From a virus: DNA of 57,126 bases. The notes under the pieces are model-generated. The model worked only from the letters and a program-made list of their open reading frames with translations. It searched no databases and was not told the DNA's origin. Location: IMG/VR virus record IMGVR_UViG_3300033180_000002, positions 1 to 57,126 of that record. One strand, written 5' to 3'. Numbering within the stretch: the stretch's first letter is position 1; every line of letters begins with the position of its first letter. Below, piece after piece: positions 2,858 to 57,077 of the stretch. Both the position numbers and the translations under genes were made by a program.

Positions 2858-4822
2858 TCATGGCGCGAGGTCCCCTCGGGTGACGTGCAGGGTGGACTTC
2901 AGCAGCTCCGGGTCGTGCGCGACGCCCCGGGTCATCAGCTCTGTGCAGTAGCCGCCCAGCAGCTCCTCTAAGGCGTCGGCGTCCACACCCAGTGCGGGGG
3001 CCTGCTCGCGGACGTGCGACCACGCACCGGCCAGCAGGGCGGGCACGCGGGAGCGGTCTGGGATGACCTGGGTATGCAGCTCATGCTTCGGTACCGCATA
3101 CCGGGCACGGGCCGGACCGGCGACGAGGCGGCCACCGGCCAGCTCCAGGGCGCGGCGCACGGCGCTGTCGGCGGCGTAGAACAGGGCGGAGCCGTCCAGG
3201 GTGCCGATGGACGCGGCGAGCTGCCCCAGCTTCTGCTTCTTCGGTGCCCCGACGTTGCCCTGCTCGGCGTCGGCGACGGACGGGAACTGCGGCAGGCCGC
3301 GCTGCCCGGCGTCGGCCGGTTCCGTACCAGCCGAGTCGTATCCGGGGTCGCCGGGCATCAGGTCACCCTGGCCAGGGAGCTGCGGCGGCGTGGGCGGGGC
3401 GGGCATGGAGATGTGCGGCAGCCCGAGGATCTTCTGTACCTCGGGGTCGCCCGCGTAGGCGGGCTGGGCCAGTACGAGGGCCTTGACCAGGCTGTACCGC
3501 AGCTCCTTGTCGTCGGGGGCGTCGTCGTCGGTGAAGGCGGCGTTGTCGCGGGCTGCCTTCGCGCTGATCAGCTCCTTCTCGGCGAACTGGAGTGCCTGGT
3601 CGGAGCGGTTGGGGCGGACGGTGAGGGCGGCGATGTCGAACCAGAGGGTCTTCTTCTCCGGGTTCTGGACGCCTGCGGCTTTGAGGGCGGGCTGGAAGTA
3701 GCCGAGGTTGAGGGCGTCGGCGAGCTGGATGAGTAGCGGCTCGATGTGGATCTTGATCGAGGACTCTTCGATCTGCCACGACGACCAGTGATTGCTGCCG
3801 CCCATGCCGGTCAGCACCTCGGGCGGGATGTCCAGCGACATCGCCATGCGCTCGACGGCGTCCTTACGCATCTGGGAGATGTGCTCCGAGATGGTCGAAT
3901 CGAACGTCAAGTGTTTGATCTTGTCCAGGGCCTCAGTGGCTACCTGGAGGATGATCGGCACCACGGCGGCGGCGTTGTCTCGCTGCTGCATCGACGTGGC
4001 CATGGTCCGCTGCAACAGCTCCGCGAAGCCCTCCACGCCCGTGCGCTGCGGCACCCCCGGCGTCTCCTGTGGCGGGCGCGGAAAGTCGATGTTGTCGGGC
4101 AGCAGCAGGATCCCGGCACCGGCAAGGCGGGAATCCAGCTCGGCGAACACCCGCTTTGTGCACTGCTCCAGCTCGCGCAGCACCGGCAGGATGGCCCGCA
4201 CGGTGGAGTCGGCCGCGTCGTGGCGGCGGGGGTGCGGGTTCCACACCCGGATCAGCAGATCCTTCTGCGGGTCCAGCTTGTAATTGCCCCCGCCGTGGGT
4301 GATGGACCGGCGGACCATGATGTCGTCGCCGCGCCGGAACACCTCCGACGACGAGCAGACATACCACTTGTCCTGGTCCGGGGTGCCGTCCTGACCGGTG
4401 TTCCGATACCCCTCGGCGACGATGAAGACATCCCCGGCGGTCATCATGTTGATGCCCATCAGGCGCTGGGCCTGGGCTTTCGCGGCGGGAGTGCCGAACA
4501 TGGTCTCGGCGATCATCTTCGCCTGGGCGTCGGCGGTCTCGTCGCCCACAGTGCCGTCGTCGGCGATGTCGGCCGCGTACATGCGGCAGCGGGAGATGGC
4601 GTTACCGATCCAGTTGACGACGAAGCGCATCTCCCCGCAGATGTCGTAGTGGCGCCACGCCTCCCACTGCCAGCGGTGGTCGCCCAGCTTGAACATCTGC
4701 CAGCTCGCGGCATCGCCGAGGTTGATGGGTACGGCGGCGGCGGTGAGGGCTGAAGGCCGCGTGCCGGGGCCGTCCAGCCCCCCGGCGGGGACCAGCTTCG
4801 GCTTCTTGGTCAACAGCCCCAC
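2858..4822 (-). CDS. portal protein
   Basis: 654 aa. The N-terminal pattern WQWEAWRHYDICGEMRFVVNWIGNAISRCRMY is typical of actinophage portals. It lies between the terminase region and MuF. Confidence 0.85.
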   Translation of the reverse strand: MGLLTKKPKLVPAGGLDGPGTRPSALTAAAVPINLGDAASWQMFKLGDHRWQWEAWRHYDICGEMRFVVNWIGNAISRCRMYAADIADDGTVGDETADAQAKMIAETMFGTPAAKAQAQRLMGINMMTAGDVFIVAEGYRNTGQDGTPDQDKWYVCSSSEVFRRGDDIMVRRSITHGGGNYKLDPQKDLLIRVWNPHPRRHDAADSTVRAILPVLRELEQCTKRVFAELDSRLAGAGILLLPDNIDFPRPPQETPGVPQRTGVEGFAELLQRTMATSMQQRDNAAAVVPIILQVATEALDKIKHLTFDSTISEHISQMRKDAVERMAMSLDIPPEVLTGMGGSNHWSSWQIEESSIKIHIEPLLIQLADALNLGYFQPALKAAGVQNPEKKTLWFDIAALTVRPNRSDQALQFAEKELISAKAARDNAAFTDDDAPDDKELRYSLVKALVLAQPAYAGDPEVQKILGLPHISMPAPPTPPQLPGQGDLMPGDPGYDSAGTEPADAGQRGLPQFPSVADAEQGNVGAPKKQKLGQLAASIGTLDGSALFYAADSAVRRALELAGGRLVAGPARARYAVPKHELHTQVIPDRSRVPALLAGAWSHVREQAPALGVDADALEELLGGYCTELMTRGVAHDPELLKSTLHVTRGDLAP

Positions 4823-4826
4823 TCAG

Positions 4827-5135
4827 TCACCCCTTCACGCGAGCCAGCGCACCGGCAGCGCCAGACAGGGCCAGCCCGAGGGCGGGCACGAACAGCCACG
4901 GCGAATCGCCGTAAGCGTAGATGATGGGGGCGGCGGGGACGGCCAGCCAGATGGACACGCACCAGGGACACAAGAGCAGGTAGGCGAGCATGTCGTGACC
5001 GCGTTCCTTGAGCGCGGTCACGGTGGCGTCGCGGGGGCGGGCCGTGATCATGTCCATCGTGATGAGCACGGTGAGGCGGGCGAACGCGAACAGGTAGACC
5101 GCGTATAAAACAGAGAAGCCGGGCATGGCCACCAT
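4827..5135 (-). CDS. DUF1360-like integral membrane protein
   Basis: 102 aa with three hydrophobic segments. It carries the LLLCPWCVSIW motif characteristic of DUF1360. Confidence 0.55.
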   Translation of the reverse strand: MVAMPGFSVLYAVYLFAFARLTVLITMDMITARPRDATVTALKERGHDMLAYLLLCPWCVSIWLAVPAAPIIYAYGDSPWLFVPALGLALSGAAGALARVKG

Positions 5136-5173: not shown

Positions 5174-5734
5174 TCAGCCCAGCAACTCTTCGATTGCTGC
5201 CGCGTACGTCTCCTGGTCGAAGATGACCAGGCGGACGACCTCCACGTCCGTGCTCGCGGAGCGCAGCGCCGTCAGGGCCTGCTTGACCGCGTCACCCTTG
5301 GGCCAGCCGTAGACACCGGCCGAGATGAGCGGGAAGGCGACCGTGCGCGCACCTACGACGTCGGCGGCGGACAGCGACCTGACGTAGCAGCTACGTAGCA
5401 CAGCCGAGCGGTCCTCGCGCGGGTTGAACATGGGGCCGACGGTGTGGACCACCCATCGTGCGGGGAGGGCGCCTGCGGTGGTGATCACGGCGTACCCGGC
5501 GGGGAGGCCGTTGGGCAGGTCGCGGCGCAGCTCCTTGCATTCCCGCAGGATGGCCGGGCCGCCCGCGTGGTGGATCGCCCCGTCCACTCCGCCGCCGCCG
5601 AGCAGGCTGGACTTAGCGGCGTTGACGATGACGTCGACCTTCTCGGTGGTGATGTCGCCCTGCACCAGCTCTATCCGCAGGGCCGGGCGGCGCCAGTTGC
5701 GCAGGCGTCGGGCAATCTTGCCGAATCCGAACAT
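5174..5734 (-). CDS. macrodomain protein (MacroD/YmdB-like ADP-ribose binding or hydrolase)
   Basis: Contains LVQGDITTEKVDVIVNAAKSSLLGGGGVDGAIHHAGGPAILRECK, the classic macro-domain signature. The ATG at 5734 overlaps the upstream stop (TGATG), whereas the ORF track start is 5752. Confidence 0.8.
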   Translation of the reverse strand: MFGFGKIARRLRNWRRPALRIELVQGDITTEKVDVIVNAAKSSLLGGGGVDGAIHHAGGPAILRECKELRRDLPNGLPAGYAVITTAGALPARWVVHTVGPMFNPREDRSAVLRSCYVRSLSAADVVGARTVAFPLISAGVYGWPKGDAVKQALTALRSASTDVEVVRLVIFDQETYAAAIEELLG

Positions 5735-5982
5735 CAGAACTTCACGGTCCATTCGCTGTCGGGGATGCTGGTGTCGGCGGCCATGATCTGAGCCAGCATG
5801 AGGGCAATTTCGCCGACCGGACGGCCGCTCATTATGGGGCCGAATGTGCGGGCCATTCCGACGGCGTCTCTACGGCTGAAGCCGTGCCAGCCGATCCGGC
5901 CGGTCGGGTCCTCAACGATGACGGAGTAAGTGGGCCGCCCGTACCAGGTGCGGCCTCGGCGGATGACGGTGATGGTCGGCAT
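5734..5982 (-). CDS. hypothetical protein (82 aa)
   Basis: The real part of the 403-aa ORF 5734..6945 is MPTITVIRRGRTWYGRPTYSVIVEDPTGRIGWHGF.... GAGGGAGG lies 6 nt upstream of the ATG at 5982. Confidence 0.6.
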   Translation of the reverse strand: MPTITVIRRGRTWYGRPTYSVIVEDPTGRIGWHGFSRRDAVGMARTFGPIMSGRPVGEIALMLAQIMAADTSIPDSEWTVKF

Positions 5983-6248: not shown

Positions 6249-6980
6249 CTAGTTGGCCACGGCCACATTGTCGGCGGCAGTGACCGTGGCCTCGTCGATG
6301 GGATCGGCGTTGGCGAGCTCGTACCCGGTGCGGCCGTTGTCCCAACGCCAGCCCGCCACGCGCTGCGCCGACATCTCGTCGAACGCCTCCACGGTCGTGC
6401 GCATGTCGGCCGCCACGGGGCGCGTGATCACGAACCTCTTGAGCGGCGGGATGGGGGCGAGCCCGTACGAGGCGAGCACCCGGTTGGCGCCCTGCTCGCA
6501 GTACTTGGGTCCGGCGATGTGCCCGAGCAGGATGATCTCGCGGAGCATGTCCAGGGTGGCCTGCATGGTGGCCGGGGCGTCCAGGTCGATCACGTTCGGG
6601 TCGGGGTCTTCCGGTCCGGCCGTGAACTTCGGGTCGTTCAAGGTGGCCTGCACGGACACCATCGTCTGCACGCCAGTGCTCACGCGGTCCTCGAACAGGG
6701 TCAGGGCCTCGGCGCGGGTTGCGGCCTGGATCCCGACCGACACCGTGCCGGAGACGGTGGCCTCCACGACGTACGTGCTGGTGAAGCCGATCAGGTTGGT
6801 GATGCCCAGCACGGTGAGTTTCTTGTTCGCCCACTCGGCGGTGATCTCCCCCGCGTTGCGCCAGTCCCGGGCCGTTGCGGCGATGTACTCGCGCAGGGCC
6901 AGCAGCTTGGTCGCCTCGTCCCGGTCCGCGTTGTTGGCCTCCCACTCGGTCCAGACAAGGGCCGGGTCTGCGTACTGCAT
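6249..6980 (-). CDS. hypothetical protein (243 aa)
   Basis: The ATG at 6980 (MQYADPALVWTEW...) is preceded by GGAGGAG. The upstream part of ORF 6249..7106 runs into a tRNA-like gene. Confidence 0.6.
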   Translation of the reverse strand: MQYADPALVWTEWEANNADRDEATKLLALREYIAATARDWRNAGEITAEWANKKLTVLGITNLIGFTSTYVVEATVSGTVSVGIQAATRAEALTLFEDRVSTGVQTMVSVQATLNDPKFTAGPEDPDPNVIDLDAPATMQATLDMLREIILLGHIAGPKYCEQGANRVLASYGLAPIPPLKRFVITRPVAADMRTTVEAFDEMSAQRVAGWRWDNGRTGYELANADPIDEATVTAADNVAVAN

Positions 6981-7058
6981 GTGATCTCCTCCAACGTGGT
7001 ATCTGTCGGCCCTCAGCTTACACGGTGCGCCGGGGGGCCGTCCAGCCGGAACGGACGG

Positions 7059-7146
7059 TGGCGAGGGCAGGATTTGAACCTGCGTCCCAGACCCCGATAG
7101 CCGCACTATCCGGGGTCCGTGCTCTAGGCCGCTGAGCTATCTCGCC
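7059..7146 (-). ncRNA. tRNA-like RNA (88 nt) with a 12-bp anticodon stem; apical loop GUGCGGC (would read anticodon GCG)
   Basis: Hand fold: GGCGAGA TA GCTC AGCGGCCTA GAGC A CGGACCCCGGATA GTGCGGC TATCGGGGTCTG GGAC GCAGG TTCAAAT CCTGC CCTCGCC A. The acceptor, D and T arms are canonical. The anticodon stem is about 7 bp too long and has one bulged G. Confidence 0.65.
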
Positions 7147-7279
7147 TGGAACCCTGCCGTGGAGGTACGCATTCGGACACCACCACAACGCCCGTGAGCC
7201 ACGATGGACCGCGTTCTGCGCCCAGCGCACGACAGGGTCAACAACATCCCCGGGGCGTAAGCCAGGGCGCCGGGGATCG

Positions 7280-7323
7280 TGGACCGGCGGGGAGTCGAAC
7301 CCCGTGATACCCAACTCCGGCCC
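7280..7323 (-). ncRNA. acceptor/T-arm minihelix (tRNA 3'-fragment-like) with a G3:U70 wobble
   Basis: Hand fold: GGGCCGG AGTTGGGTATCA CGGGG TTCGACT CCCCG CCGGTCC A. No D or anticodon arm could be found. It shares the 3' end CCGGTCCA with the element at 9138..9203. Confidence 0.3.
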
Positions 7324-7332
7324 GACCTTCAT

Positions 7333-7342
7333 GATCGAAAAC
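7333..7342 (+). repeat. AT-rich motif copy (GATCGAAAAC)
   Basis: Context CATGATCGAAAACGC; non-coding, 10 nt from the minihelix at 7280..7323. Confidence 0.8.
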
Positions 7343-7351
7343 GCCACGCTG

Positions 7352-7696
7352 TTATGTGCTGGCCTGCGGCCCCTGGACCTCGTCGACCAGCGGGGTGCCC
7401 GTGTCGGCGTGCTCCCGGTAGTTGTCGAGCAGATCGTCGAGGGCATACCAGACGCCCGTACGGCTGCCGTCGGACTCGCGGAACGAATCACGCCACCGCT
7501 TGATCCAGACGTCGATATCGCTGCCGCGCATTGGCCTGTGGGGCTCCACCAACGGCTGCGGCAGGGCGGGCGGGCGCCACCCCATGGTGAGAAGCGCCCG
7601 AATCGCAGCAAGAGCCTGAGAGTCGTCGAGTCCGGGGCGGATGGCCCGGACCTTCGTCGCGGCGATGCGTAGGGCTAAGTCGTCCATACCCCGCAC
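7352..7696 (-). CDS. hypothetical protein (114 aa) embedded in the tRNA-like array
   Basis: ORF track entry. The sequence looks protein-like (...VWYALDDLLDNYREHADTGTPLVDE...). An alternative ATG lies at 7687. Confidence 0.55.
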   Translation of the reverse strand: MRGMDDLALRIAATKVRAIRPGLDDSQALAAIRALLTMGWRPPALPQPLVEPHRPMRGSDIDVWIKRWRDSFRESDGSRTGVWYALDDLLDNYREHADTGTPLVDEVQGPQAST

Positions 7697-7700
7697 CCTT

Positions 7701-7841
7701 TCACTTGCTCTTCTTCGGGTTCTTCGCCTTGACCATCTTCTTGTCGCCGTACTTCGGTTTCTGCGCCTGCATGGGCGGGGTGGTCGCCCTGCTCGCCTTC
7801 TCCCCGGTGATGACGTTGCGGACGCTCTTGAAGAATCCCAC
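7701..7841 (-). CDS. hypothetical basic small protein (46 aa)
   Basis: Hand translation gives VGFFKSVRNVITGEKASRATTPPMQAQKPKYGDKKMVKAKNPKKSK*. AAGGGGG lies 7 nt upstream of the GTG. Confidence 0.4.
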   Translation of the reverse strand: MGFFKSVRNVITGEKASRATTPPMQAQKPKYGDKKMVKAKNPKKSK

Positions 7842-7843
7842 CG

Positions 7844-7966
7844 CTATGCCCCCTTCGGACCCCGTACGCGGTTGAGCCGGGCGGCGATGCTGTTGACCTG
7901 CTTGGTGCTGGCGTTGTTGCGAATGGCCTTGCCGAGTGCGGCCCAGATCTTGTCGACGTCGTTCAT
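7844..7966 (-). CDS. hypothetical small protein (40 aa)
   Basis: Hand translation gives MNDVDKIWAALGKAIRNNASTKQVNSIAARLNRVRGPKGA*. It has a strong GAGGAGGAG ribosome-binding site. Confidence 0.5.
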   Translation of the reverse strand: MNDVDKIWAALGKAIRNNASTKQVNSIAARLNRVRGPKGA

Positions 7967-8002
7967 GCCGTTCTCCTCCTCGTTTGGGGGGTTACGTGGT
8001 AG

Positions 8003-8064
8003 GTCGCCGGGACGCGAATCCACGCCGTGGCCACGGGGGATTCCCTCGGTGCATCCCGGCGACC
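8003..8064. other. hairpin closed by a perfect 11-bp stem
   Basis: GGTCGCCGGGA (8003-8013) pairs with TCCCGGCGACC (8054-8064). It lies between the 194-nt tRNA-like RNA and the next small gene. On the minus strand it is followed by TACCA. Confidence 0.55.
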
Positions 8065-8154
8065 CGCCGCCCAGCGTCCGGTAAGAGCCTTCGTCTGGGC
8101 GACAGCGGAGGGCTGAGGTCGGGGCGGGCCCGCTTTGCTCTCCTCCGCATCCGT

Positions 8155-8348
8155 GGTGACGGGTGGGCTCGAACCACCGGGGTCCTTCCGGCCTGGTCCC
8201 TGTCGGCCCGGATGATCTTCCGAGTTTTCAGGGGGGCCTTGGGGCCGCTCCTCCCCCTTCGCACCGGCTGAATCAGGCCGGGGGTCGCCGTTAGCCGTGC
8301 GCACGGCGCGGTCCGGCCGGGGGTGCTCTTCCTCTGAGCTACGTCACC
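8155..8348 (-). ncRNA. 194-nt tRNA-like RNA: canonical acceptor, D and T arms with about 144 nt in place of the anticodon/variable region
   Basis: The 5' part is GGTGACG TA GCTC AGAGGAA GAGC A, and the 3' part is GGTGG TTCGAGC CCACC CGTCACC A, giving a 7/7-bp acceptor. The insert holds several hairpins, a duplicated ACCCCCGGCC and a GGGGGAGGAG tract. Confidence 0.6.
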
Positions 8349-8466
8349 TTGTTCAGTTGTCGTGCCCACCTCGCCCGCCGGGCCGTCGCCATGACGGGCG
8401 AGGTGGTGCCATTTCTCGCTTGGGTCAGACACCGTCGTGAGTGAACAGCTAGGCATGGCTGCCTCC

Positions 8467-8536
8467 GTGCCGTGCGGGGAGTTGAACCCCGTCTTCCCCG
8501 GGTTAGGGGGCGCTCCACCTCCAGAGCTTCACGGCG
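8467..8536 (-). tRNA. tRNA-like gene (70 nt), C1:A72 mismatch, 4-bp anticodon stem, loop CUAACCC
   Basis: Hand fold: CGCCGTG AA GCTC TGGAGGTG GAGC G CCCC CTAACCC GGGG AAGA CGGGG TTCAACT CCCCG CACGGCA C. It is a paralogue of 8790..8861, and both are preceded by GTAC. Confidence 0.6.
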
Positions 8537-8789
8537 GTACTGAGCCAGCCCGGGTCTCCAGGGCATGTCCCCGGCTCACCGATTCTCCCGTGTCCGGGCG
8601 GTGGGTCCTTGCTGGCCTTTCCTGTTACCAGGCGCAACCTGTGCGCCACTACCCCCTGCGGGGCCTCCCGCTCTGCGGGCGTCACGGCCGTGTCAGGCCG
8701 TCCTCGGCGGCTTCCTGCGCGTCACAGCTGCTCACCCGGGAGGGTGGACTGTGTACGACCTGCGTGCAAGCCACGAAGCACTTTCGGTC

Positions 8790-8861
8790 GTGCCACGGGA
8801 GGACTCGAACCTCCGACTCAGGGCTTTGGGCCCCAGCTCTGGCCATCTGAGCTACGCGGCG
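8790..8861 (-). tRNA. tRNA-like gene (72 nt) with an initiator-like body (C1:A72, three G:C pairs in the anticodon stem) but loop CCCAAAG
   Basis: Hand fold: CGCCGCG TA GCTC AGATGGCCA GAGC TGGGG CCCAAAG CCCTG AGTC GGAGG TTCGAGT CCTCC CGTGGCA C. Position 33 is C rather than U, and there is no N26. Confidence 0.65.
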
Positions 8862-8954
8862 GTACTAGGCTTTCTTCCGCTTCGCGTGTCGACCCACTAG
8901 GCGGCGCCTGGCCTTTCCTTTTACCACCCCAGGTTGGCTATCTCCCGGGGGCCG

Positions 8955-9026
8955 TGACGTTGGACGGATTCGCACCGCCGACCTCCTGCCGTGAGGCAGG
9001 TGCTCTATCTGCTGAGCTACAACGTC
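8955..9026 (-). tRNA. tRNA-like gene (72 nt), Val(CAC)-like, with a 6-nt anticodon loop
   Basis: Hand fold: GACGTTG TA GCTC AGCAGATA GAGC A CCTGC CUCACG GCAGG AGGTC GGCGG TGCGAAT CCGTC CAACGTC A. The loop is one nt short, and the T-loop is TGC instead of TTC. Confidence 0.7.
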
Positions 9027-9137
9027 GGCCGCTTACTCAAGGCGACCACTCGGGTTGACGCCAGGGTGAGTGTCGGCAGTTTCCCGCATTGGGCCAATGG
9101 CCTTCCAGGTAGTGCCGTCCTCCAGCGTTCCTTCGCG

Positions 9138-9203
9138 TGGACCGGTGGCATCGAAGCCAGCAGGCGTGCGGGCCGCACATCTTCAAAACACCCTGCCCGG
9201 TCC
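9138..9203 (-). ncRNA. 66-nt tRNA-like element (7-bp acceptor, T-like arm with a 6-nt loop, no clear D or anticodon arm)
   Basis: Sequence: GGACCGGGCAGGGTGTTTTGAAGATGTGCGGCCCGCACGCCTGCTGGCTTCGATGCCACCGGTCCA. The ends GGACCGG/CCGGTCC pair perfectly. Confidence 0.3.
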
Positions 9204-9344
9204 CGGCCGCCCGCATATGTTCGGGTCATCTGTCGGCCGTCGTGCTGGTCGTGGCCTCATCCCCCGAGGCGTGGGGGCATCGTCCAGCACTTGCACCTGT
9301 GGTCGTCTTGGGGTGTCGCACCCGGTGCCCCGGTGCGTCTTCCG

Positions 9345-9412
9345 TGGGAAGAGCAGGAGTCGAACCTGCGTCTCTGTGCCGAAGCGTGGCTCTACCGTTG
9401 AGCTATCTCCCC
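9345..9412 (-). ncRNA. tRNA-like RNA (68 nt) with a truncated anticodon arm
   Basis: Hand fold: GGGGAGA TA GCTC AACGGTA GAGC [CACGCTTCGGCACAGAGAC] GCAGG TTCGACT CCTGC TCTTCCC A. Only 19 nt sit where about 22 are expected, and no 5-bp/7-nt anticodon hairpin can form. Confidence 0.55.
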
Positions 9413-9455: not shown

Positions 9456-9638
9456 TTACTTCTTGGGCTTGTCGCCGCCCTTGAAGACCACGACGATCTT
9501 GCCGAGCAGGGACTTGTCGGAGGTGCGGCCGTCACCAGCCGAGGCGCCGTGGCCACGGGGGTGACCTGTGCCGCGACCGAACCAGCGGTTGCTGGACTTG
9601 CCGGATTCGTTGCCGAGGTGCCGGGTCTTGTTGGTCAT
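9456..9638 (-). CDS. hypothetical basic protein (60 aa)
   Basis: ORF track entry. GGAGGAG lies upstream of the ATG. Confidence 0.55.
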   Translation of the reverse strand: MTNKTRHLGNESGKSSNRWFGRGTGHPRGHGASAGDGRTSDKSLLGKIVVVFKGGDKPKK

Positions 9639-11235: not shown

Positions 11236-12714
11236 CTATCCGTACGCCGAGCTGGAGGGCATCCAGTCGTTGACGGACGGGGCGGCGATGCGGACCAGCC
11301 CCTTCTCTTTGCCCATCAGGAACAGTCCGGCCTGCACGAGGGCGTCGATGCGGTCGGGGCTCTTCGCATCCTCGGGGACCCACGTACAGCATTGGTCCTC
11401 CAGCTCGACGAAGGTGCCGACGTGGTGCCAGCGGTTCTGCTCGTAGCGGGAGGCGACCGGTTCGGCGCGCAGCTTCTTCCCGGCTAGGGAGGTGACTTCC
11501 TTGACCGGCGGCGGACCAGGGGGGAACAGGCAGCCTTGGCACCCCTCGTCCGGGTCGTCCTTGTCCGGGCCGGGGCAGCCCGGCTCGTGCTCCTTCTGCA
11601 TCTCCGCGTAGGCGTCGGTGACGACCTGCATGAGCCACTTCTTGCCCATGTTCGTTTCGATGATCAGCCAGGTGGCGTCGTAGCGCAGGAACATCTCCCA
11701 GGCGCGGCGGGCGGCGGCGTGCCCGACAATCTTCATCGTCCAGTCGGCTAGGACGTAGTCGTCGCCGTTGTAGCCGCGCCCGGCTGCGATCAGGCCGGTC
11801 TCGTCGCCCGCGCCAGTGGCGCCGGGGTCCATGGAGATGACGCGCATCTTCAGTTCGGGCAGGTCGGCAGCCTTGATGCGGTTGTTTTCGATCATGGTGC
11901 GGTTCCACAGTGCACCCTCGATCTCTTCGAGGAGGTGCCCGTACAACTCCTGCAACCCGGCGCGGGTGCCCTCGTAGATCTTCTTGAGCTGGTCGACGAC
12001 CTTCCGCGACAGGTTCATGATGTTGTCGAAGATCGAGCCGGTGGTGATGACGACCGTGCCGTCCGTCTCGTGCTGCCACTCGATCAGCAGCTTGATCGGC
12101 TTCGGGGTGGTGGTGACCACGGCGCGGGGGTGGTCGTCGATGAGCGGGGCGCGCAGCGACGGCAGGATGCCCTCGTACCAGGCGCTGTACGTGTAGCGCC
12201 ACTTGGCCAGCTCGTCGGCCCACAGCCCGGCCAGGTTGAAGCCTCGGCCGACGTCGGCGTTGTCGGCGCCCTCGAAGTAGATGACCTGACCGGACGTGAA
12301 TTCGATCATGAGCTTGGGCGACTTCCAGTACCGGAAGTCCTTGCCCTTCACGAGGCCCATGCGGTGCAGGATCGACAGGATGCCGGAGTTGCCCTCAAGG
12401 CAGGCGGTGCGGCAGTCGTTCAGCGTCTCGGCGATCACCAGCCACTCGGTGCGCTGGCCGAAGGCATCCACGGGATGGCGGAACACCCGGTCGAGGAGGT
12501 CTTCGGCGCCGGTGCGCGTTTTGCCCCAGCCGCGACCGGAGCGGATCAGCCAGACCAGCCAGTCCCCGGGCGGCTTGAACTGCTCGGGCCGCCCGACCCA
12601 CCACCAAGCGCCCTTCTGGATCTCCTCCAGCGTCTCGCGGTTCTGGGCCTGGAGCCATTGACGGCGCAGCGCGGGCGGCAGCAGGGCCAGCTTCTGGGCG
12701 GCGGACAGACTCAT
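11236..12714 (-). CDS. terminase large subunit
   Basis: 492 aa. It has the Walker A-like motif IRSGRGWGKTRTGAED, a C-terminal nuclease-like region, and the expected size and position. Confidence 0.85.
   Translation of the reverse strand: MSLSAAQKLALLPPALRRQWLQAQNRETLEEIQKGAWWWVGRPEQFKPPGDWLVWLIRSGRGWGKTRTGAEDLLDRVFRHPVDAFGQRTEWLVIAETLNDCRTACLEGNSGILSILHRMGLVKGKDFRYWKSPKLMIEFTSGQVIYFEGADNADVGRGFNLAGLWADELAKWRYTYSAWYEGILPSLRAPLIDDHPRAVVTTTPKPIKLLIEWQHETDGTVVITTGSIFDNIMNLSRKVVDQLKKIYEGTRAGLQELYGHLLEEIEGALWNRTMIENNRIKAADLPELKMRVISMDPGATGAGDETGLIAAGRGYNGDDYVLADWTMKIVGHAAARRAWEMFLRYDATWLIIETNMGKKWLMQVVTDAYAEMQKEHEPGCPGPDKDDPDEGCQGCLFPPGPPPVKEVTSLAGKKLRAEPVASRYEQNRWHHVGTFVELEDQCCTWVPEDAKSPDRIDALVQAGLFLMGKEKGLVRIAAPSVNDWMPSSSAYG
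11884..11893 (-). repeat. AT-rich motif copy (GATCGAAAAC)
   Basis: Context CATGATCGAAAACAA; within the large terminase in sense, read M-I-E-N. Confidence 0.8.
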
Positions 12715-21020: not shown

Positions 21021-21112
21021 GGGCCTGTAGCTCAACGGCAGAGCGCGTCATCCCACCGGGCATCACCCGGGTTCGGCAAGACGAGGCGCGGGTTCGACTC
21101 CCGCCAGGACCA
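21021..21112 (+). ncRNA. tRNA-like RNA (92 nt) with an expanded, irregular anticodon arm
   Basis: Hand fold: GGGCCTG TA GCTC AACGGCA GAGC G [42 nt: CGTC A TCCCA CCGGG CATCA CCCGG GTTCGGCAA GACG AGGC] GCGGG TTCGACT CCCGC CAGGACC A. It has a G3:A70 mismatch. Confidence 0.55.
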
Positions 21113-52041: not shown

Positions 52042-52278
52042 TCAAATGCCCTGCTGGTCGGGCAGGTCGGCTGGATCATCCCAGGACTGACGGGGACGCT
52101 GCTCGATCTGTGTGACGAGGTGCTGCACGCCGAGCGGCAGCTTCTCCCACGTGGCCGCATCCTGGCCGCCCGCAGCGGTCCACGCCGCGATGATCTGCGC
52201 GCGCTCGTCAGGGTGCACGTCGGTGCTCCCCAGGGCCTCGCCGAGACGGAGGAACAGCTTGCCTACGGAACTACTCAT
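52042..52278 (-). CDS. hypothetical protein (78 aa)
   Basis: ORF track entry. It has an ATGA overlap with the giant gene's stop. Confidence 0.55.
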   Translation of the reverse strand: MSSSVGKLFLRLGEALGSTDVHPDERAQIIAAWTAAGGQDAATWEKLPLGVQHLVTQIEQRPRQSWDDPADLPDQQGI

Positions 52279-55200
52279 CCCGGCTCCTTCTGGAGAATCA
52301 ACACAGAACGGTTCAGCCAGTTGAAGGCGGGCTTGCCGGGCTGGGCAACGTGGCGGGCGCCGCCGCCAGGGGACATGTGGTGCGTTTCGATCTCGATACC
52401 GTCGATACCCTTCGCTGCGGCGTAGCGGCCCGGGTCGTAGAAAGTGGAGTCCTCGTAGCCGCCACCCTTGGCTTTCGACGCGCGAGGGTTGGCGTGCGAC
52501 TTCTTCGCCACCTTGTCGTACTTCTCGGTGACCGCACTCTTCGGGATGAGCAGGCGCACGATGGATCCCTTGGTGCTGTCCGCGTACTGGGTGGCCACCG
52601 ACTTTTGCGTTGCCAGGTAGTAGCCGTTCCCGAAGATGCCCTTGCCGTAGTAGGCGGGGCCGGAGCGCATCTCCTCGTTGATCTCCTCGGCGGTCTTGCC
52701 GTTCGACCGACCGCTACGCCAGTTGCGTCCACCGGCGCCGGACGTGCCGCGCCACGCCTCGATGTAGTCGCCAGTCGCGAGCAGCCGGTCGATCTCCTTC
52801 TTGTCGAGCACGGTCGGGGTGTCGTCGAAGCCCTGCTGGGCGCCGATCGCGGCCAACCGGCCGTCGGCGGTCTTGCCGTCGTACAGCTTGCGGTCGTTCT
52901 TGATCGTCTGCCGCTGGGCGTCGAACGTGGCCTTGTCGGGGATCAGATCCTTCCCCTTCGACTGCTTGTGGGCGTGCGGCCAGGCGTTGAACGTGGCGGG
53001 TGCCTGACGGCCGCCGGACGGCATGCGGAGCCGCCCCAGCCGCTTGGTGACCGGGCCGGGCCGGGCGATCTGGCCCAGCGTCGTGCCCGTGGCGCCCTGC
53101 GGGAACAGGGAGATGACGTTCGTTTCCAGCTTGCCGCCCGCGATGGGGTGATGCAGCTTGCCGCTGGCGTCGAGAGCCTTGATCTCGGCCTCGGTCATCC
53201 ACTTCGCGTCGGAGGTCTCCGCGCGGGCGTGGGCCGTCGACAGGTCCGGCTTGATCATCGTCGGGACCGAGGCGGCCACCGTCGTGTACTTCCACGGGTG
53301 GCCCGGGACCGAGAACGTGTGGTCGCCGTGCACGAGGGCGTCCTTGAACACGTCGTCCTTGAGGCCCAGCTCCTCGATCGTCTCGCGGGTGGCGCCCTGG
53401 TGCGGGGTTTCCTTCGAGTCGCTGGCGCCGCCGGGGAACGTCCACTTGCCGGGGTCGCTGATGGCGGGGCCGCGCTGGACCATCAGGTAGCGCTTCTCGC
53501 CGGTCTGCGGGTCGGTGTGCTGGAGGAGCAGCCCGGCCGCGCCGTGCGCCCCCCAGACCCGGCCGCCGCCGGGGAGGCTGATCCACCTGTCGCCGGACTG
53601 GCCGCTGTCCTTGGCCTTCTCTAGGCCCTTGAGCGGGGTGGCGTAGCGGACCTGGCCGGGGACCGCATTGGCCGGGGGGATGATCGCGCCGGTCGGGACC
53701 TGGCCGGACGGGGTACCGGCCGGGGTGAACCGGTCGATCAGCTTGCGGGCCTTGTCGGCGGAAGGCCCCTTCGCCGTGGTCGCGATGAACGACAGGTCGC
53801 CGAGGAGGTGGCCCTGCTCCTGGCCGTTGAGCGCGCTGAAGTCGGAGCCGCGCAGCGCACCGTACGTGGAGAGCTGGTGGGCCATGGTGTGCGACTTGCC
53901 GGACGCGTGGACGCCGTAGATGGTGTCCAGGGCGGCCTGCACGTGCGGCGGCACGTTCGCCTGCACGGTCGTCGGCGTGAACCCGGACGGGCTGGCAGCC
54001 GGGGCCGCCGGGTGGAACTTCGCGTTCAGGGCCTGCTGAGATGCGCCGGGGAGCGCTTTGATCCGCTCGTCGATGGCGTCGCGGTACGTCTTGTCCAGGG
54101 AGTCGAAGTCGGCCTTGGGGAGGTCGGTGAGTGTCATCTCCACGGCGAAGTCGCTGAAGGCGCCGCCCGGAGCGGACTGGGAGATGGCGTCGATCTGGTC
54201 GATGTTGAGCTGAGCTGCGGCGTCGCCGAGGTTGAAGTCTTTTGTCCGTAGCGCGTTGTATCGGATCGGGAGGGGAAGGCTCCCGTCGTGTGCGATCTTG
54301 TCCAGGTCGGCGTGAATCAGATCTTGGTCGCCCTGGCTCATGGTGCGGAATTTCGAGATCGGTACGTCGGCGTACACCCGGGTACGGTCGAACGGATTGA
54401 TGATCTTCGTTCCGAAGTTGGCGATGTCCGAAGCGGCCCGCACATCGCGGTCAGCGTAGGAGGTCCGCATCCCCTGGAGGTGGTCAACCAGGGTGGAGGG
54501 CATCACCTTGAACGGGTTGTCCTGCGGCGACCAGGTGAGGACGGGCCCGCCACGCTCGGCGCGGACCTGCGCCTCCTCCAGATGGGAGGTGATGGCGGCC
54601 TGGGTGAACGAGGGTAGCGACTGGTAGTCAGCCGGATCCAGCCTGCGGTAGGTGTCGACAAGCCCCGTGGAAATGAACGGCTTGGCGGCGGCCTGGGCAG
54701 CATCGAGCTGGGCCCCGGTGAACGGGTGCCCCTGCAACTGCCGCAGGGCGATCTGCGTGCCGGTCTTCGCGTGATTGTTGCCCTGCGACAGGATCCGGTC
54801 GGCGAGCGCCCTGCGGACGTTCATCTTCGCGGCGTCGGACAGCGCGTTGAACTCGTCGAGGCGTTCCTGCGGCACTTCGACGTCGCTGCTGGAGATGTGC
54901 AGGAGGTTGTCCACCACGTGGTTGCGGGTGGCCAGCGACCAGGGGCTGCCGGTGGGCACGCCCGGGTCGCCGCGTAGCCCCGTTTCGATGAGGTGCAGGC
55001 GCAGCGCTTTGACGGCTTCGGCGTGGATCGGGTGGGAGGAGGTCAGGTCGGCTTCGGAGGCCCGGAAGATGGCCGTGATGTCGGATGAGGTGAGCCGGGG
55101 GGCGGGCTCGTAGTTGTGCTTGTTTTGCGCCATCTGGATCGAGTTGTACTGCGGGCCGCCGTACGGGCTTTCGATCATGGAGGCGCGCAGCCAGAGCGGC

Positions 55201-57077
55201 AGCGTCGGGTTGTCCTCGGCGACCCGACGCGCTTCCTTCGCCAGGACGGCGCCGGGGGACGTGGGGTCGCCGTACTTCGTCGGGGCCTGGACCCGGGCGT
55301 GCAGGAATTCCGACCACAGCGCGTCGGCATCGACCTTGCCCGCACGGAAGTCCGCCTCGGCCTGCCGCATCCGGTGGACGCCTGGGTGCAGGCCGGTGTA
55401 CTTCGTGATGGCCGCTTCGGCGTCCTTGTCGGCGGGCGCACTGCTGTGCAGCTCCTGTAGCGCGTCGGTGATCTTGCGCTGTTCCTCCGGCTTGGCGGCG
55501 TCAAACTGCGGCTTCGACAGGGCGGAGAGCGCCTTGACTCGGTCGGCGCGCGGAATGGTGAGGAGGTTCGCCGACCGGATGGCGTCGGACAGCGCCGCCG
55601 CGTCCTTGGCGCCCCTGGTCTGCGCCTCGGCGTGCAGCTCGTTCAGCGACGGCTCGTGGTCGCGCTTGGTGCTGTCGGGCTGCGGCCCGGCGTCGATCAT
55701 CTTCTTCAGAGCGGCGGCGCGGAAGGCGGTGTGCGGGGTGGACGACTTGTGGTTCGCGATGAAGTCGAGCCGGGCGGTGATGGTCCGGCGGTCGGCTGCG
55801 TCGAGCCTGCCGATCGAAGTATGGCTGAGCTGCCCGACCCGTTTGATCACATCATCCGAGGGGGCGGCGCTGGCTGCCGCCTTGACGGCTTCGTTCATCG
55901 GGTCGCTGTAGCCCTTGGCGGTGGGAGATGCCGGGCTGACCGGGGCCGGGTGTCTTGATCCAAAACGATCGAGGAGATCCGTCGCGGCCTGCCGCTTCTT
56001 CGGGTCGAGGAACTTCGCCTTGGCGTTGGCGAGGTCGTCGCGGATCGCCTTCTGCTCGGCCGGGGCGAGGCTGTCGAACTCGGCCTTGGACAGCTTGCCG
56101 TACGCGTCGAGGTGGGTCTTGGCCATCTGCGCCTTGGGGGCGCTGCGGTTGGCTACGGCGTTGGCGTGCTGGACGTGCGCGGCGGTGCCCGGCGCGAGGG
56201 GAGCGGACGGGGTGGGGCCGGACGGGGCGCCAGGGGCGGCCGGTGGTGGCGGCGCCGTCGGGGGCAGAGCGTTGCCGCCGTGGGTGTTGGCATGGTCGTG
56301 GGCGTACTTCTCCAGGGCGGCCTGCGTCGAGCTGGTGCGGATCAGCTTCCCGTTGTGCTTGAGGCTGTAGCCCGCGCTGTCGCGGGTGATCCGGTAGCCG
56401 CTGGGCAGGCCCACCGAGGTCGAGGAGACGGAGCCGCCAGGGAGTGGCTTGTTCAGGATGCCGTTTTGATCGCGGGTGCCCCTGCTGGGCGAGGGGGCCG
56501 GAGCGGGCAGTTGCGGCGTCTTGGCGGCCTGGCCGAGGCTGACCTTGCCCGGCGTCGGGACGGGGTGGGAGCCGGGCGCCTTACCGCCGGGCGCGGCGGA
56601 AACGCTCGGGGCGGGCAGCTTGGCCAGCAGGGCTTCGGCCTTGGTCTGCTGCGGGCCGAAGCCGCGCGCCTTGATGGCGGTCAGCTCGTTGCGGATGGTC
56701 GTCTTGTCGGCGTCGGGTAGGCCAGCCCACTCCTGCGGGGTGATCTTGTCGGCCTTGTCCAGCTTGTAGGTGTCGGTGACCTTCGGCTGGGTGATGACGA
56801 ACGCGGGGCCGCGACCGGCGACGGTCGGCTTCTTCTGCTTCGGCCCGAGCGGTAGCGGCGGGGGCGTCTTGACCTGGACGCCTGCCGCCTTGGTGACGGC
56901 CTGCCCGGCGGTGTGTGCCTGCCCTCCGGCGAGGTCAGCCTTCTGGTTGACCTGCCCGAGCGGTACGGCCTGCGCGTTGTGGGCCGGGTGGGTGGGGGCG
57001 GGCTTCGCCTTGATCTCCGTCAGCAGGCGGCGGGGGATGGGTTTGCCCTGGGAGCGCAAGTCGGCGATGCGCTTCAC
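52275..57077 (-). CDS. giant protein, main body (1,600 of about 1,700 aa): degenerate helical repeats + Nudix hydrolase domain + C-terminal ADP-ribosyltransferase domain
   Basis: The Nudix box is GGASDSKETPHQGATRETIEELGL (about 53361-53432). The ART-like R/S-T/ExE elements are YIEAWRGTS, GYYLATQKS and GIDGIEIE (about 52275-52890). The true start is the ATG at 378 in the first repeat copy. Confidence 0.8.
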   Translation of the reverse strand: MKRIADLRSQGKPIPRRLLTEIKAKPAPTHPAHNAQAVPLGQVNQKADLAGGQAHTAGQAVTKAAGVQVKTPPPLPLGPKQKKPTVAGRGPAFVITQPKVTDTYKLDKADKITPQEWAGLPDADKTTIRNELTAIKARGFGPQQTKAEALLAKLPAPSVSAAPGGKAPGSHPVPTPGKVSLGQAAKTPQLPAPAPSPSRGTRDQNGILNKPLPGGSVSSTSVGLPSGYRITRDSAGYSLKHNGKLIRTSSTQAALEKYAHDHANTHGGNALPPTAPPPPAAPGAPSGPTPSAPLAPGTAAHVQHANAVANRSAPKAQMAKTHLDAYGKLSKAEFDSLAPAEQKAIRDDLANAKAKFLDPKKRQAATDLLDRFGSRHPAPVSPASPTAKGYSDPMNEAVKAAASAAPSDDVIKRVGQLSHTSIGRLDAADRRTITARLDFIANHKSSTPHTAFRAAALKKMIDAGPQPDSTKRDHEPSLNELHAEAQTRGAKDAAALSDAIRSANLLTIPRADRVKALSALSKPQFDAAKPEEQRKITDALQELHSSAPADKDAEAAITKYTGLHPGVHRMRQAEADFRAGKVDADALWSEFLHARVQAPTKYGDPTSPGAVLAKEARRVAEDNPTLPLWLRASMIESPYGGPQYNSIQMAQNKHNYEPAPRLTSSDITAIFRASEADLTSSHPIHAEAVKALRLHLIETGLRGDPGVPTGSPWSLATRNHVVDNLLHISSSDVEVPQERLDEFNALSDAAKMNVRRALADRILSQGNNHAKTGTQIALRQLQGHPFTGAQLDAAQAAAKPFISTGLVDTYRRLDPADYQSLPSFTQAAITSHLEEAQVRAERGGPVLTWSPQDNPFKVMPSTLVDHLQGMRTSYADRDVRAASDIANFGTKIINPFDRTRVYADVPISKFRTMSQGDQDLIHADLDKIAHDGSLPLPIRYNALRTKDFNLGDAAAQLNIDQIDAISQSAPGGAFSDFAVEMTLTDLPKADFDSLDKTYRDAIDERIKALPGASQQALNAKFHPAAPAASPSGFTPTTVQANVPPHVQAALDTIYGVHASGKSHTMAHQLSTYGALRGSDFSALNGQEQGHLLGDLSFIATTAKGPSADKARKLIDRFTPAGTPSGQVPTGAIIPPANAVPGQVRYATPLKGLEKAKDSGQSGDRWISLPGGGRVWGAHGAAGLLLQHTDPQTGEKRYLMVQRGPAISDPGKWTFPGGASDSKETPHQGATRETIEELGLKDDVFKDALVHGDHTFSVPGHPWKYTTVAASVPTMIKPDLSTAHARAETSDAKWMTEAEIKALDASGKLHHPIAGGKLETNVISLFPQGATGTTLGQIARPGPVTKRLGRLRMPSGGRQAPATFNAWPHAHKQSKGKDLIPDKATFDAQRQTIKNDRKLYDGKTADGRLAAIGAQQGFDDTPTVLDKKEIDRLLATGDYIEAWRGTSGAGGRNWRSGRSNGKTAEEINEEMRSGPAYYGKGIFGNGYYLATQKSVATQYADSTKGSIVRLLIPKSAVTEKYDKVAKKSHANPRASKAKGGGYEDSTFYDPGRYAAAKGIDGIEIETHHMSPGGGARHVAQPGKPAFNWLNRSVLILQKEPG

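Follow-up and report, generated by a model that had tools for sequence, protein, structure and literature searches.

What might a bacterial virus do with a row of tRNA-like genes of which hardly any could read a codon? The question is raised by an island of 2.4 kilobases (kb) on the minus strand (positions 7059-9412) of a viral genome from IMG/VR (record IMGVR_UViG_3300033180_000002, positions 1 to 57,126; this whole stretch of 57,126 nucleotides (nt) is called the window below), in which an initial annotation had noted an array of tRNA-like elements with non-canonical anticodon arms. To our knowledge, tRNA genes of phages are almost always discussed as decoders, in terms of either codon compensation or escape from anticodon nucleases. 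Here we describe a whole lineage that keeps tRNA-derived genes, apparently selected for their structure and with hardly any decoding among them, which suggests that the phage uses the tRNA shape for a non-translational purpose.

The window is a near-complete genome (about 57 kb) of a tailed phage with high GC content (68%), and the presence of terminase, portal and MuF genes identifies it as a double-stranded DNA (dsDNA) phage. It was compared with 54 related viral contigs in IMG/VR, all metagenomic and representing a soil lineage, whose portal proteins are 69–89% identical. As for cultured relatives, megablast found nothing and blastn gave only 59-nt tRNA matches in Vibrio phages; the best cultured match of the portal was Actinoplanes phage phiAsp2, with 38%. 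One relative has a WhiB gene, suggestive of an actinobacterial host. The position of the array between terminase and portal was constant across the 54 related contigs, with the common gene order TerL–p121–p67–(p60)–array–p243–(Macro)–p102–portal. On the minus strand of the window, the order is TerL (11236–12714), the array, an open reading frame (ORF) of 243 amino acids, a Macro-domain protein, a small membrane protein, portal (2858–4822) and MuF. In 29 complete arrays, island length ranged from 2.3 to 4.7 kb (median 3.2 kb), with two to eight strictly detected modules per array as a lower bound; genomes of the lineage contain five to ten tRNA-derived genes each. The island shares its strand with the flanking late genes, and a scan for promoters and terminators gave no signal above chance and none internal to the island. 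It is probably transcribed together with the terminase-to-portal late operon.

The tRNA-like elements and their decoding end

On the minus strand, ARAGORN called four tRNA-like genes between 7.06 and 9.03 kb. Two of them received impossible anticodons of 4 nt (7057-7146) and 2 nt (8954-9026), and the other two were nominally labelled Val-AAC (8467-8536) and Leu-CAA (8790-8861). The Rfam tRNA model scored above its gathering threshold at 8955-9026 (59 bits), 9345-9412 (48.5 bits), 7059-7146 (46.7 bits) and 8790-8861 (41.3 bits), and beyond tRNA no family reached its gathering score in a permissive Rfam scan of the window. We also used a structural detector of our own, which needs a 7-base-pair (bp) acceptor stem and a T arm, treats the D arm as optional and allows any centre. 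It found seven array elements on one strand within 2.4 kb, while the remaining ~55 kb, searched on both strands, contained one more element (21021-21112, plus strand) and one probable false positive. The clustering of the elements is thus far beyond chance. Taking ARAGORN, Rfam, ViennaRNA and the detector together, all six tRNA-like elements and both minihelices listed in the initial annotation exist, on the minus strand and where it had placed them.

Outside the decoding end, the features of canonical tRNA are present, namely a 7-bp acceptor stem, a D arm, a T arm with a GTTCRA-type loop, and the tertiary nucleotides U8, A14, G18G19, G53-C61 and T54-A58. By contrast, a 5-bp anticodon stem with a 7-nt loop, U33 and R37 was found in none of the nine elements of the window. 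A relaxed test (at least 4 bp, 7-nt loop, U33 and R37) was passed by 8 of 176 elements of the lineage, compared to 18 of 28 in mycobacteriophage Bxz1 when identical code was applied. Similarly, ARAGORN assigned "anticodons" of 2 or 4 nt in 43 of 93 calls from the lineage and in none of 25 from the Bxz1 tRNA cluster. The distance from the D stem to the T stem, which is 22–23 nt in normal tRNA, varied between 0 and 232 nt, and the hairpin loops of tRNA-sized centres comprised 3–8 nt, most commonly 4. Where the decoding end should be, there are stems capped by tetraloops, long helices or entire RNA domains, and such elements are unable to read codons. Canonical loops are retained in a few relatives (Arg-CCU in L028, Arg-GCG in L036, and a small GCA family); the elements of the lineage able to decode are "almost none", not "none". 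Annotation pipelines that trust ARAGORN would log false tRNA-Val, tRNA-Leu and tRNA-Gly genes in these genomes.

The individual elements of the array, all on the minus strand, differ mainly in their centres. E2 (8955-9026) has a tRNA-Arg-type body, with A20 in the D arm and the T arm GGCGG-UGCGAAU-CCGUC, and its anticodon arm folds in ViennaRNA into a 6-bp stem with a UCAC loop. E3 (8790-8861) and E4 (8467-8536) belong to a family that we call C and share a C1×A72 mismatch and C73. In E3, the loop CCCAAAG places a C at position 33, and C32-G38 can close to leave a 5-nt loop; E4, also called by ARAGORN, has a 4-bp stem with a loop CUAACCC of 6 or 7 nt and C37. E1 (9345-9412) combines the acceptor GGGGAGA/UCUUCCC and A73 with normal D and T arms, and its centre of 19 nt lacks an anticodon arm; only a 2-bp UUCG mini-hairpin is predicted there by ViennaRNA. 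Among E1 orthologs, the centre measures 9-66 nt and in some includes an extra arm of 28 nt. E5 (8154-8348), recognised by the detector and by its ViennaRNA fold, is a tRNA body with 146 nt between the D and T arms, an excess of ~123 nt over the canonical 22-23 nt. In E6 (7059-7146; fold z = -3.7), the anticodon arm of the minimum free energy fold is a 14-bp helix with one bulge and a 3-nt loop, and an alternative with 12 bp leaves a 5-nt loop. This type of arm recurs in L013 and L052, where a single G-C to A-U change preserves pairing. The minihelix mh1 (7280-7323) is clean and consists of a 7-bp acceptor (GGGCCGG/CCGGUCC, with G3·U70 and A73), a 12-nt linker and a T arm, without D arm and without anticodon arm. 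The possible minihelix mh2 (9138-9203; acceptor GGACCGG/CCGGUCC, A73) has a weak 4-bp T-like stem with a 6-nt loop, a fold z of -2.2 and conservation in just three to four loci, and is the weakest member.

Software folding therefore agreed with the hand folds of the initial annotation in that ordinary 7-nt loops were not restored anywhere, and it reproduced the 4-bp stem and C37 at 8467-8536, C33 at 8790-8861 and a non-standard loop at 8955-9026. Some details changed. The long arm at 7059-7146 was real, with 14 bp and a bulge in place of the proposed 12 bp; the large centre at 8155-8348, given as ~144 nt inserted, was found, though as an insertion its size was overestimated; the 19 nt at 9345-9412 indeed lack an anticodon arm and yet form the small UUCG hairpin; and only one of the two proposed minihelices, 7280-7323, is a clean one. 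The claim that just three genes at 7352-7966 are real also held: frame-specific GC content at third codon positions (GC3) indicated coding nowhere else in the array.

The ninth element (21021-21112, plus strand; 43-nt centre, Rfam 48 bits) is located outside the array, downstream of an ERF recombinase module. Relatives (L293-L298) contain a non-canonical tRNA-like element at the equivalent site, several of them with G3·U70 and A73, yet with 3-nt or 6-nt loops or G33. In a more distant relative, the E2 ortholog (L036 5251-5323) has a canonical 7-nt loop AUGCGAU with the Arg anticodon GCG, and may represent a snapshot of the decoding ancestor. In the Bxz1 record (L055, positions 95001-145000), the detector found three elements that are unannotated there (284-338, 4845-4961 and 5363-5492). 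They possess tRNA-type acceptor and T arms without a standard centre and correspond to a 55-nt minihelix, a 117-nt element and a 130-nt element, the last with a G3·U70-like acceptor. These may be the YrlA or tmRNA-like RNAs of that phage, and tRNA-shaped non-decoders may be commoner in actinophages.

Structural selection and descent from tRNA

Alignments were made with MAFFT, and the covariation, shuffle and Fisher statistics ignore phylogeny. Since pairing of the acceptor and T stems was the detection criterion, the results are partly circular for those two helices; the criterion had no bearing on D stems, anticodon stems, leaders, the hairpin RNA or the tertiary pair. In the E2 family (alignment A1, 16 genomes), 98.9% of cells were paired compared to 31–51% in slid controls, and both sides had changed in 11 of 22 pairs. 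The replacement "anticodon" stem, which the detector never required, covaried at six of six pairs, while the loop that it carries differed among orthologs in sequence as well as in length (4 to 8 nt). A sequence-only nhmmer search located this family in 30 loci, and the members overlooked by the detector were intact, having a variant T loop or one additional wobble pair. In family C (C1×A72; alignment A5, 19 sequences), 97.1% of cells were paired and both sides had changed in 10 of 15 pairs. At the elbow of the E2 family, positions 18/55 were G/U in 16 sequences and A/G in 11, with no mixed combination (Fisher p = 8×10⁻⁸, phylogeny ignored). Together with the frequencies of U8 (72%), A14 (74%) and the D-loop GG (83%), this covariation supports an L-shaped fold, and the retained acceptor stem, D arm, T arm and D/T elbow should produce the L-shape of tRNA. 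Frequent G·U pairs in the E2 family and in the hairpin RNA described below indicate that the sense-strand RNA is the folded one. Judged by these alignments, the tRNA body is under structural selection. Explanation of the elements as tRNA pseudogenes or products of random decay was rejected on the basis of the 97–99% paired cells, the many double-sided changes and the intactness of members found by sequence only.

As for the origin of the modules, we searched bacteria, one genome per species, for genes with E2-type D and T arms and a free centre of 18–30 nt. All 80 of the 80 genes obtained were canonical tRNA-Arg (CCU 41, UCG 32, ACG 5, CCG 1, UCU 1), from which it follows that E2 is a tRNA-Arg body, A20 included, with a collapsed anticodon loop. 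In the minihelix class and the second-site elements (9-10 elements), G1-C72, G2-C71, G3·U70 and A73 are kept while pairs 4–7 covary; such a combination around G3·U70 and A73 is the alanine identity set, and it was present in ~7% of elements. In family C, the C1×A72 mismatch and C73 are invariant. Based on these sequence comparisons, the modules are descended from real tRNAs, one family clearly from tRNA-Arg. The CCA end was encoded in only 11 of 147 unique elements (window and loci), and because of this rarity host 3' processing would be required. In 76 of the 147, the discriminator is followed by CG(A/G/C/U). An alternative register of family C, with a 6-bp acceptor and A73 followed by CG, would match the A-CG pattern.

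Structured RNAs between the elements

Sequences between the elements had initially been regarded as ORF junk. They are indeed non-coding, but the term junk does not apply: they comprise conserved structured RNA, and according to the comparisons below the island is a chain of units, each built of a structured RNA and a tRNA-shaped module. The main tRNA-like families each have their own conserved structured leader, which ends at position −1 or not more than 6 nt from it. The E2 leader (9027-9071, minus strand, as are all features in this section) is predicted to form an H-type pseudoknot, with S1 ACUCA/UGAGU and a 6-bp S2 ending exactly at −1 of E2. In alignment A9 (19 sequences) of this leader, which belongs to family B (the E2 family), 97.1% of cells were paired compared to 28-38% in slid controls, and both sides had changed in five of six S2 pairs. 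The E3 leader (8862-8945) carries a shared GGUAAAAGGAAAGGCCAG box and a terminal AGUAC directly before C1. The related E4 leader (8537-8640; ~95 nt) combines compensated hairpins with two invariant elements, a GGUAACAGGAA box and an AAGUAC that directly adjoins C1; it is conserved in 10 loci, and RNAalifold (alignment A6) gave 19 pairs, 9 of them compensatory. The leader of E6 (7147-7279; 133 nt) consists of a hairpin and a closed multi-stem domain (CCCUGYCG...CGGCAGGG), stops 5 nt short of G1 and is conserved in 11 loci (alignment A7, 38 pairs, 9 compensatory). Finally, the spacer RNA between E1 and mh2 (9204-9344) is conserved in six loci, with 29 pairs in RNAalifold, 7 of which are compensatory.

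Structured RNA also occurs within the modules. The 146-nt insert of E5 (alignment A4) showed 82% column identity in L008, L010 and L019 and is found also in L021/L022, in six genomes overall; it had no match in Rfam, group I introns included. In a subfamily of family B, a hairpin of ~33 nt is grafted into the D loop (L019 4184-4289, L021 586-690, L031 1186-1292, L045 6124-6230 and L048 5749-5853); its sequence differs by lineage, and the hairpin is always formed.

The most conserved non-tRNA feature of the island is a new 65-nt hairpin RNA (8001-8065), in which an internal loop of 7 nt separates P1 (15 bp) from P2 (6 bp), and P2 is followed by an invariant loop of 16 nt, CCCGUGGCCACGGCGU. One copy per array was present in 31 loci, with 97.7% of cells paired and both sides changed in 17 of 20 pairs (alignment A2), and no match was found in Rfam. 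Both E6 and this hairpin RNA lie directly upstream of ribosome-binding sites; for the latter it is the site of a small ORF in related genomes and of p40 in the window. When IMG/VR was scanned with a 15-mer from the hairpin loop, mostly chance matches in GC-rich contigs were obtained, and the full hairpin context was present in 13 of 116, nearly all from the same lineage. Pairing between the hairpin loop (CACGGCG) and the acceptor strand of family C (CGCCGUG) was considered and rejected, as no covariation was seen and L011 alters the acceptor and not the loop. A second exact copy of the hairpin motif GTGGCCACGGCG is located at 9556 (minus strand) inside the ORF p60 (9456-9638), where it encodes HPRGHG, while the hairpin frame would read PRGHG. 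We took p60 as coding, and it looks so from its protein homologs (39–82% identical, some elsewhere in the genome) and its GC3 of 0.87.

The set of new covarying RNA motifs thus includes the 65-nt hairpin with its invariant loop, the pseudoknot leader, the leaders of 95 and 133 nt and the 146-nt grafted domain.

Possible roles, related systems and neighbouring genes

The initial annotation had offered non-decoding tRNA mimics under selection for structure as one of its two readings, and at the structural level covariation supports this. What such RNAs could do is a different matter. We tentatively favour, while stopping short of calling it probable, the explanation that the tRNA bodies are host-processed handles for the maturation and stability of a polycistronic set of small RNAs. 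What is conserved in the modules, namely acceptor/T minihelix, elbow and discriminator, corresponds to the features by which RNase P, RNase Z and the CCA-adding enzyme recognise their substrates. The island would yield one long transcript of composite RNAs, each a structured RNA followed by a tRNA-shaped module, and the tRNA body would have been retained for its recognition by host tRNA enzymes. Cleavage at +1 would fall to RNase P and trimming past the discriminator to RNase Z or exonucleases; the 3' end would be capped by the CCA-adding enzyme. The body might thereby provide an integral site for processing and a chassis that resists nucleases, so that leaders, grafted inserts and the neighbouring hairpin RNA would be released and stabilised. 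A role in processing or as a scaffold is favoured by the leaders at −1 or within 6 nt of it, the conserved inserts and the lack of detected internal promoters and terminators. The location on the strand of the late genes, the rarity of encoded CCA and the failure of the protein scans to find a tRNA enzyme in the phage also speak for handling by the host. Moreover, the freely varying part is the one needed only for decoding and by most synthetases, which, along with leaders at −1 and grafted domains, makes handles the most economical reading; the dispensable anticodon limb and the sufficiency of minihelices count in the same direction. A more specific version is less likely but plausible: in a polycistronic small-RNA factory, disarmed tRNA bodies would recruit host maturation enzymes and release a changing set of effector RNAs, and these RNAs or the bodies themselves would neutralise defences targeting tRNA or structured RNA, beside enzymes that remove ADP-ribose.

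Several points weigh against the proposed handles. A single processing site would do for punctuation, yet the arrays hold two to eight or more modules. E2, the module with the widest distribution, is an "empty" chassis with near-invariant D and T arms, which suggests that the body binds a specific partner. The leader helix of family B abuts +1 and leaves no single-stranded nucleotide, which could hinder rather than guide RNase P. The lineage is represented by metagenome sequences only, and disregard of phylogeny in the covariation statistics applies here as well.

The near-invariance of the D and T arms counts in favour of the main rival, which we consider a serious though minority possibility. 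It holds that the elements are decoys or sponges: bodies mimicking host tRNAs (Arg, Ala and others) would bind host defence proteins for which the tRNA body or the acceptor end is the recognition site and, with the target loop gone, would be neither cleavable nor usable. Candidate targets are anticodon nucleases, nucleotidyltransferase or pyrophosphokinase toxins acting at the CCA end, and ADP-ribosyltransferases modifying structured RNA. Specific mimicry is seen in the tRNA-Arg body with its A20 and in the Ala set; the anticodon end turns over fast in length and sequence between close relatives, which fits an arms race; the accessory zone holds Macro (24 loci), NADAR (L050), MazG and WhiB; and phage tRNAs have already been proposed to dodge anticodon nucleases through loop changes (PMC10264068). 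However, the loop read by known anticodon nucleases is the one lacking here, decoys would face competition from a very large pool of host tRNA, and the leaders, the 146-nt insert and the hairpin RNA would be left unexplained. The location between terminase and portal in every genome, the ribosome-binding sites immediately following E6 and the hairpin RNA and the failure to find internal promoters or terminators would equally be expected if the modules were only cis-acting punctuation of mRNA, i.e. cleavage or stability signals uncoupling terminase, small ORFs, portal and head genes, with functionless released RNAs. We regard this as improbable, since ~1.8 kb of conserved covarying structure, including a 146-nt domain and an invariant 16-nt loop, exceeds what punctuation needs, and the next feature after most modules is another RNA and not an ORF.

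The alanine identity set, kept in 9-10 elements in which pairs 4-7 covary, and the match of mh1 to both ends of the Rfam tmRNA model raise the idea that a subclass is charged by anticodon-independent synthetases, above all AlaRS, and serves as aminoacyl carriers or mimics of the tRNA-like domain of tmRNA. Such RNAs would donate amino acids non-ribosomally or compete with tmRNA for AlaRS and SmpB, and a phage enzyme that uses Gly-tRNA for DNA modification is known (PMC13219725). The set is nevertheless confined to ~7% of elements, CCA is not encoded in most (present in 11 of 147), and no aminoacyl-tRNA-dependent transferase, SmpB or synthetase was found in the phage proteins scanned. The tRNA-Arg-type body, moreover, is devoid of C35, and ArgRS needs C35. 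We thus find carriers rather improbable even for a subclass. Activity on the ribosome, as frameshifting (8-nt loop), suppressor or other non-standard tRNAs, appears very unlikely to us. ARAGORN did report triplet anticodons in 50 of 93 calls, one of them CUA, and L028 Arg-CCU, L036 Arg-GCG and the GCA family have canonical loops, but the loop ranges from 4 to 8 nt with variable sequence within a single orthologous family whose stems covary, many centres are tetraloops, 14-bp helices, armless stretches of 0-19 nt or 146-nt domains, and U33 is mostly absent. The other reading of the initial annotation, a decaying tRNA gene cluster with no present function, can hardly be maintained, although descent of the elements from tRNA is clear and one weak member (9138-9203) looks eroded. 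Damage is limited to the decoding end; compensatory changes have preserved the other helices in as many as 30 related genomes, with portals 69-89% identical; the tertiary contact co-varies; members missed by the detector are intact; and an island of 2.3-4.7 kb is retained in all 29 of 29 complete arrays of a ~57-kb phage.

Literature searches gave no description of such an array in phages. In its proposed working, it appears closest to YrlA, mascRNA/MALAT1, herpesvirus TMERs and engineered tRNA scaffolds, and it belongs to none of these families, given that the defining features tested were lacking. We would place it among tRNA-mimicking non-coding RNAs, with a real chance that it represents a new type of phage RNA system. 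The YrlA Y RNAs of bacteria and of a mycobacteriophage are tRNA-mimicking partners of Ro60/Rsr, and that of M. smegmatis has a 7-bp acceptor, is cleaved by RNase P and bears a CCA tail (PMC4201824). They resemble the array in combining tRNA-mimicking acceptor, D and T arms with another module in place of the decoding part, and in their occurrence in Actinobacteria and the phages of these. They are, however, defined by a Ro60-binding helix and an adjacent rsr gene, and no TROVE/Rsr was present among ~40 window proteins; the array, in turn, has 5-10 different modules per genome in tandem, each with a leader of its own. The YrlA model of Rfam reached 16.3 bits against a gathering score of 69. In MALAT1-mascRNA, MEN-beta menRNA and Arabidopsis GUT15, the RNase P cut at the module makes the mature end of the upstream RNA (PMC8457004, PMC6152437). 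There, too, a module without a working anticodon arm is situated directly downstream of a structured non-coding RNA, but these RNAs are eukaryotic and nuclear, contain one module per transcript and are non-homologous to the array. The leaders at or within 6 nt of −1 fit the same architecture, with cleavage predicted here from sequence only. At mh1, the mascRNA model (RF01684) scored 28 bits, its gathering score being 42.5.

TMERs of murid gammaherpesvirus 68 are non-aminoacylated tRNA-like RNAs fused to pre-miRNA hairpins and rely on host tRNA-processing enzymes. Like the array, they form a virus-encoded series of tRNA-like elements, each fused to small structured RNAs. In contrast, they are transcribed by Pol III in eukaryotes and carry their hairpins on the 3' side of the tRNA-like part, whereas the structured RNAs of the array are mostly 5' of or within the module, in a bacterial operon. 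In polycistronic tRNA-gRNA arrays, RNAs are flanked by tRNAs for host processing. In the engineered tRNA scaffold, an RNA is grafted in place of the anticodon arm, processed by the host and protected by the tRNA fold (PMC3753655). E5 with its 146-nt graft and the D-loop inserts resemble natural versions of these synthetic designs, for which no natural phage counterpart was found in the literature searched. If the modules are processing or stability handles, the island would be that counterpart and, in bacteria, would parallel mascRNA and the herpesvirus TMERs; if they act as decoys, a mechanism of RNA mimicry would be added to phage counter-defence. The tRNA cluster of T4 contains extra stable "species 1 and 2" RNAs that are co-processed with tRNAs. 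Other phage tRNA clusters carry point mutations in anticodon loops, proposed to evade anticodon nucleases (PMC10264068). These clusters share with the array the grouping of tRNA-derived phage genes and loop changes tied to host defences; they differ in keeping 7-nt loops and decoding, while the array alters loop size and the arm itself.

Three further classes were tried and rejected. The alignment of mh1 with both ends of the Rfam tmRNA model stayed below the gathering score (26.5 bits versus 47), and mh1 corresponds to the tRNA-like domain only (47 nt), without a tag ORF; a "tmRNA*" call by ARAGORN in L005 was a permuted-model call spanning three tRNA-like elements. Intron-containing tRNA was dismissed, as no group I or ribozyme match was obtained at E <= 10 and tetraloop or 9-19-nt centres are beyond repair by splicing. 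The 3' tRNA-like structures of plant viruses do not apply to a dsDNA phage, which has no RNA-genome 3' end, and the Tymo_tRNA-like model scored 20 bits versus 40.

With regard to protein-coding genes, the three small ORFs inside the island are p114 (7352-7696), the lysine-rich p46 (7701-7841) and p40 (7844-7966), all on the minus strand and with a GC3 frame signal. Their tblastn homologs occur in subsets of loci, and no Pfam or PHROG function was assigned to them. Both p46 and the glycine/arginine-rich p60 (9456-9638, minus strand), which stands beside the island, are very basic small proteins and candidate RNA-binding partners. When ~40 window proteins were scanned against Pfam and 10 against PHROGs, recognisable matches were limited to Macro, NUDIX, an S-adenosylmethionine (SAM) methyltransferase, ERF and structural proteins. 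These scans revealed no RNA ligase, CCA-adding enzyme, RNase, synthetase, Rsr/TROVE, SmpB or aminoacyl-tRNA transferase (GNAT/Fem/Mom-like). The protein p243 (6249-6980, minus strand), encoded directly after the array in most relatives, has 58 homologs, all within the lineage. Its AlphaFold model is confident (pLDDT 89) and shows an internally duplicated α/β fold, with no match in Pfam or PHROGs and none among solved structures (best E 1.8).

The zone from the array to the portal is a variable accessory island, with Macro present in 24 loci. In the window, the Macro-domain protein (5174-5752, minus strand) follows the array; L050 has no Macro homolog and encodes a NADAR-domain protein in the equivalent zone (8916-9371). 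Macro and NADAR are folds that remove ADP-ribose, and their location beside the RNA island suggests counter-defence against ADP-ribosylating toxins. Other accessory cargo of relatives, in or beside the arrays, includes an Rv2179c-like 3'–5' exoribonuclease, WhiB and a MazG-like pyrophosphohydrolase (L019 6963-7577; L020 1005-1268; L001 405-710), and WDGH proteins are also part of the accessory-zone cargo of individual relatives. Elsewhere in the window, an ORF of 1600 amino acids (52275-57077, minus strand) is unusually large for a phage, and NUDIX (residues ~1194-1301) is its sole recognisable domain.

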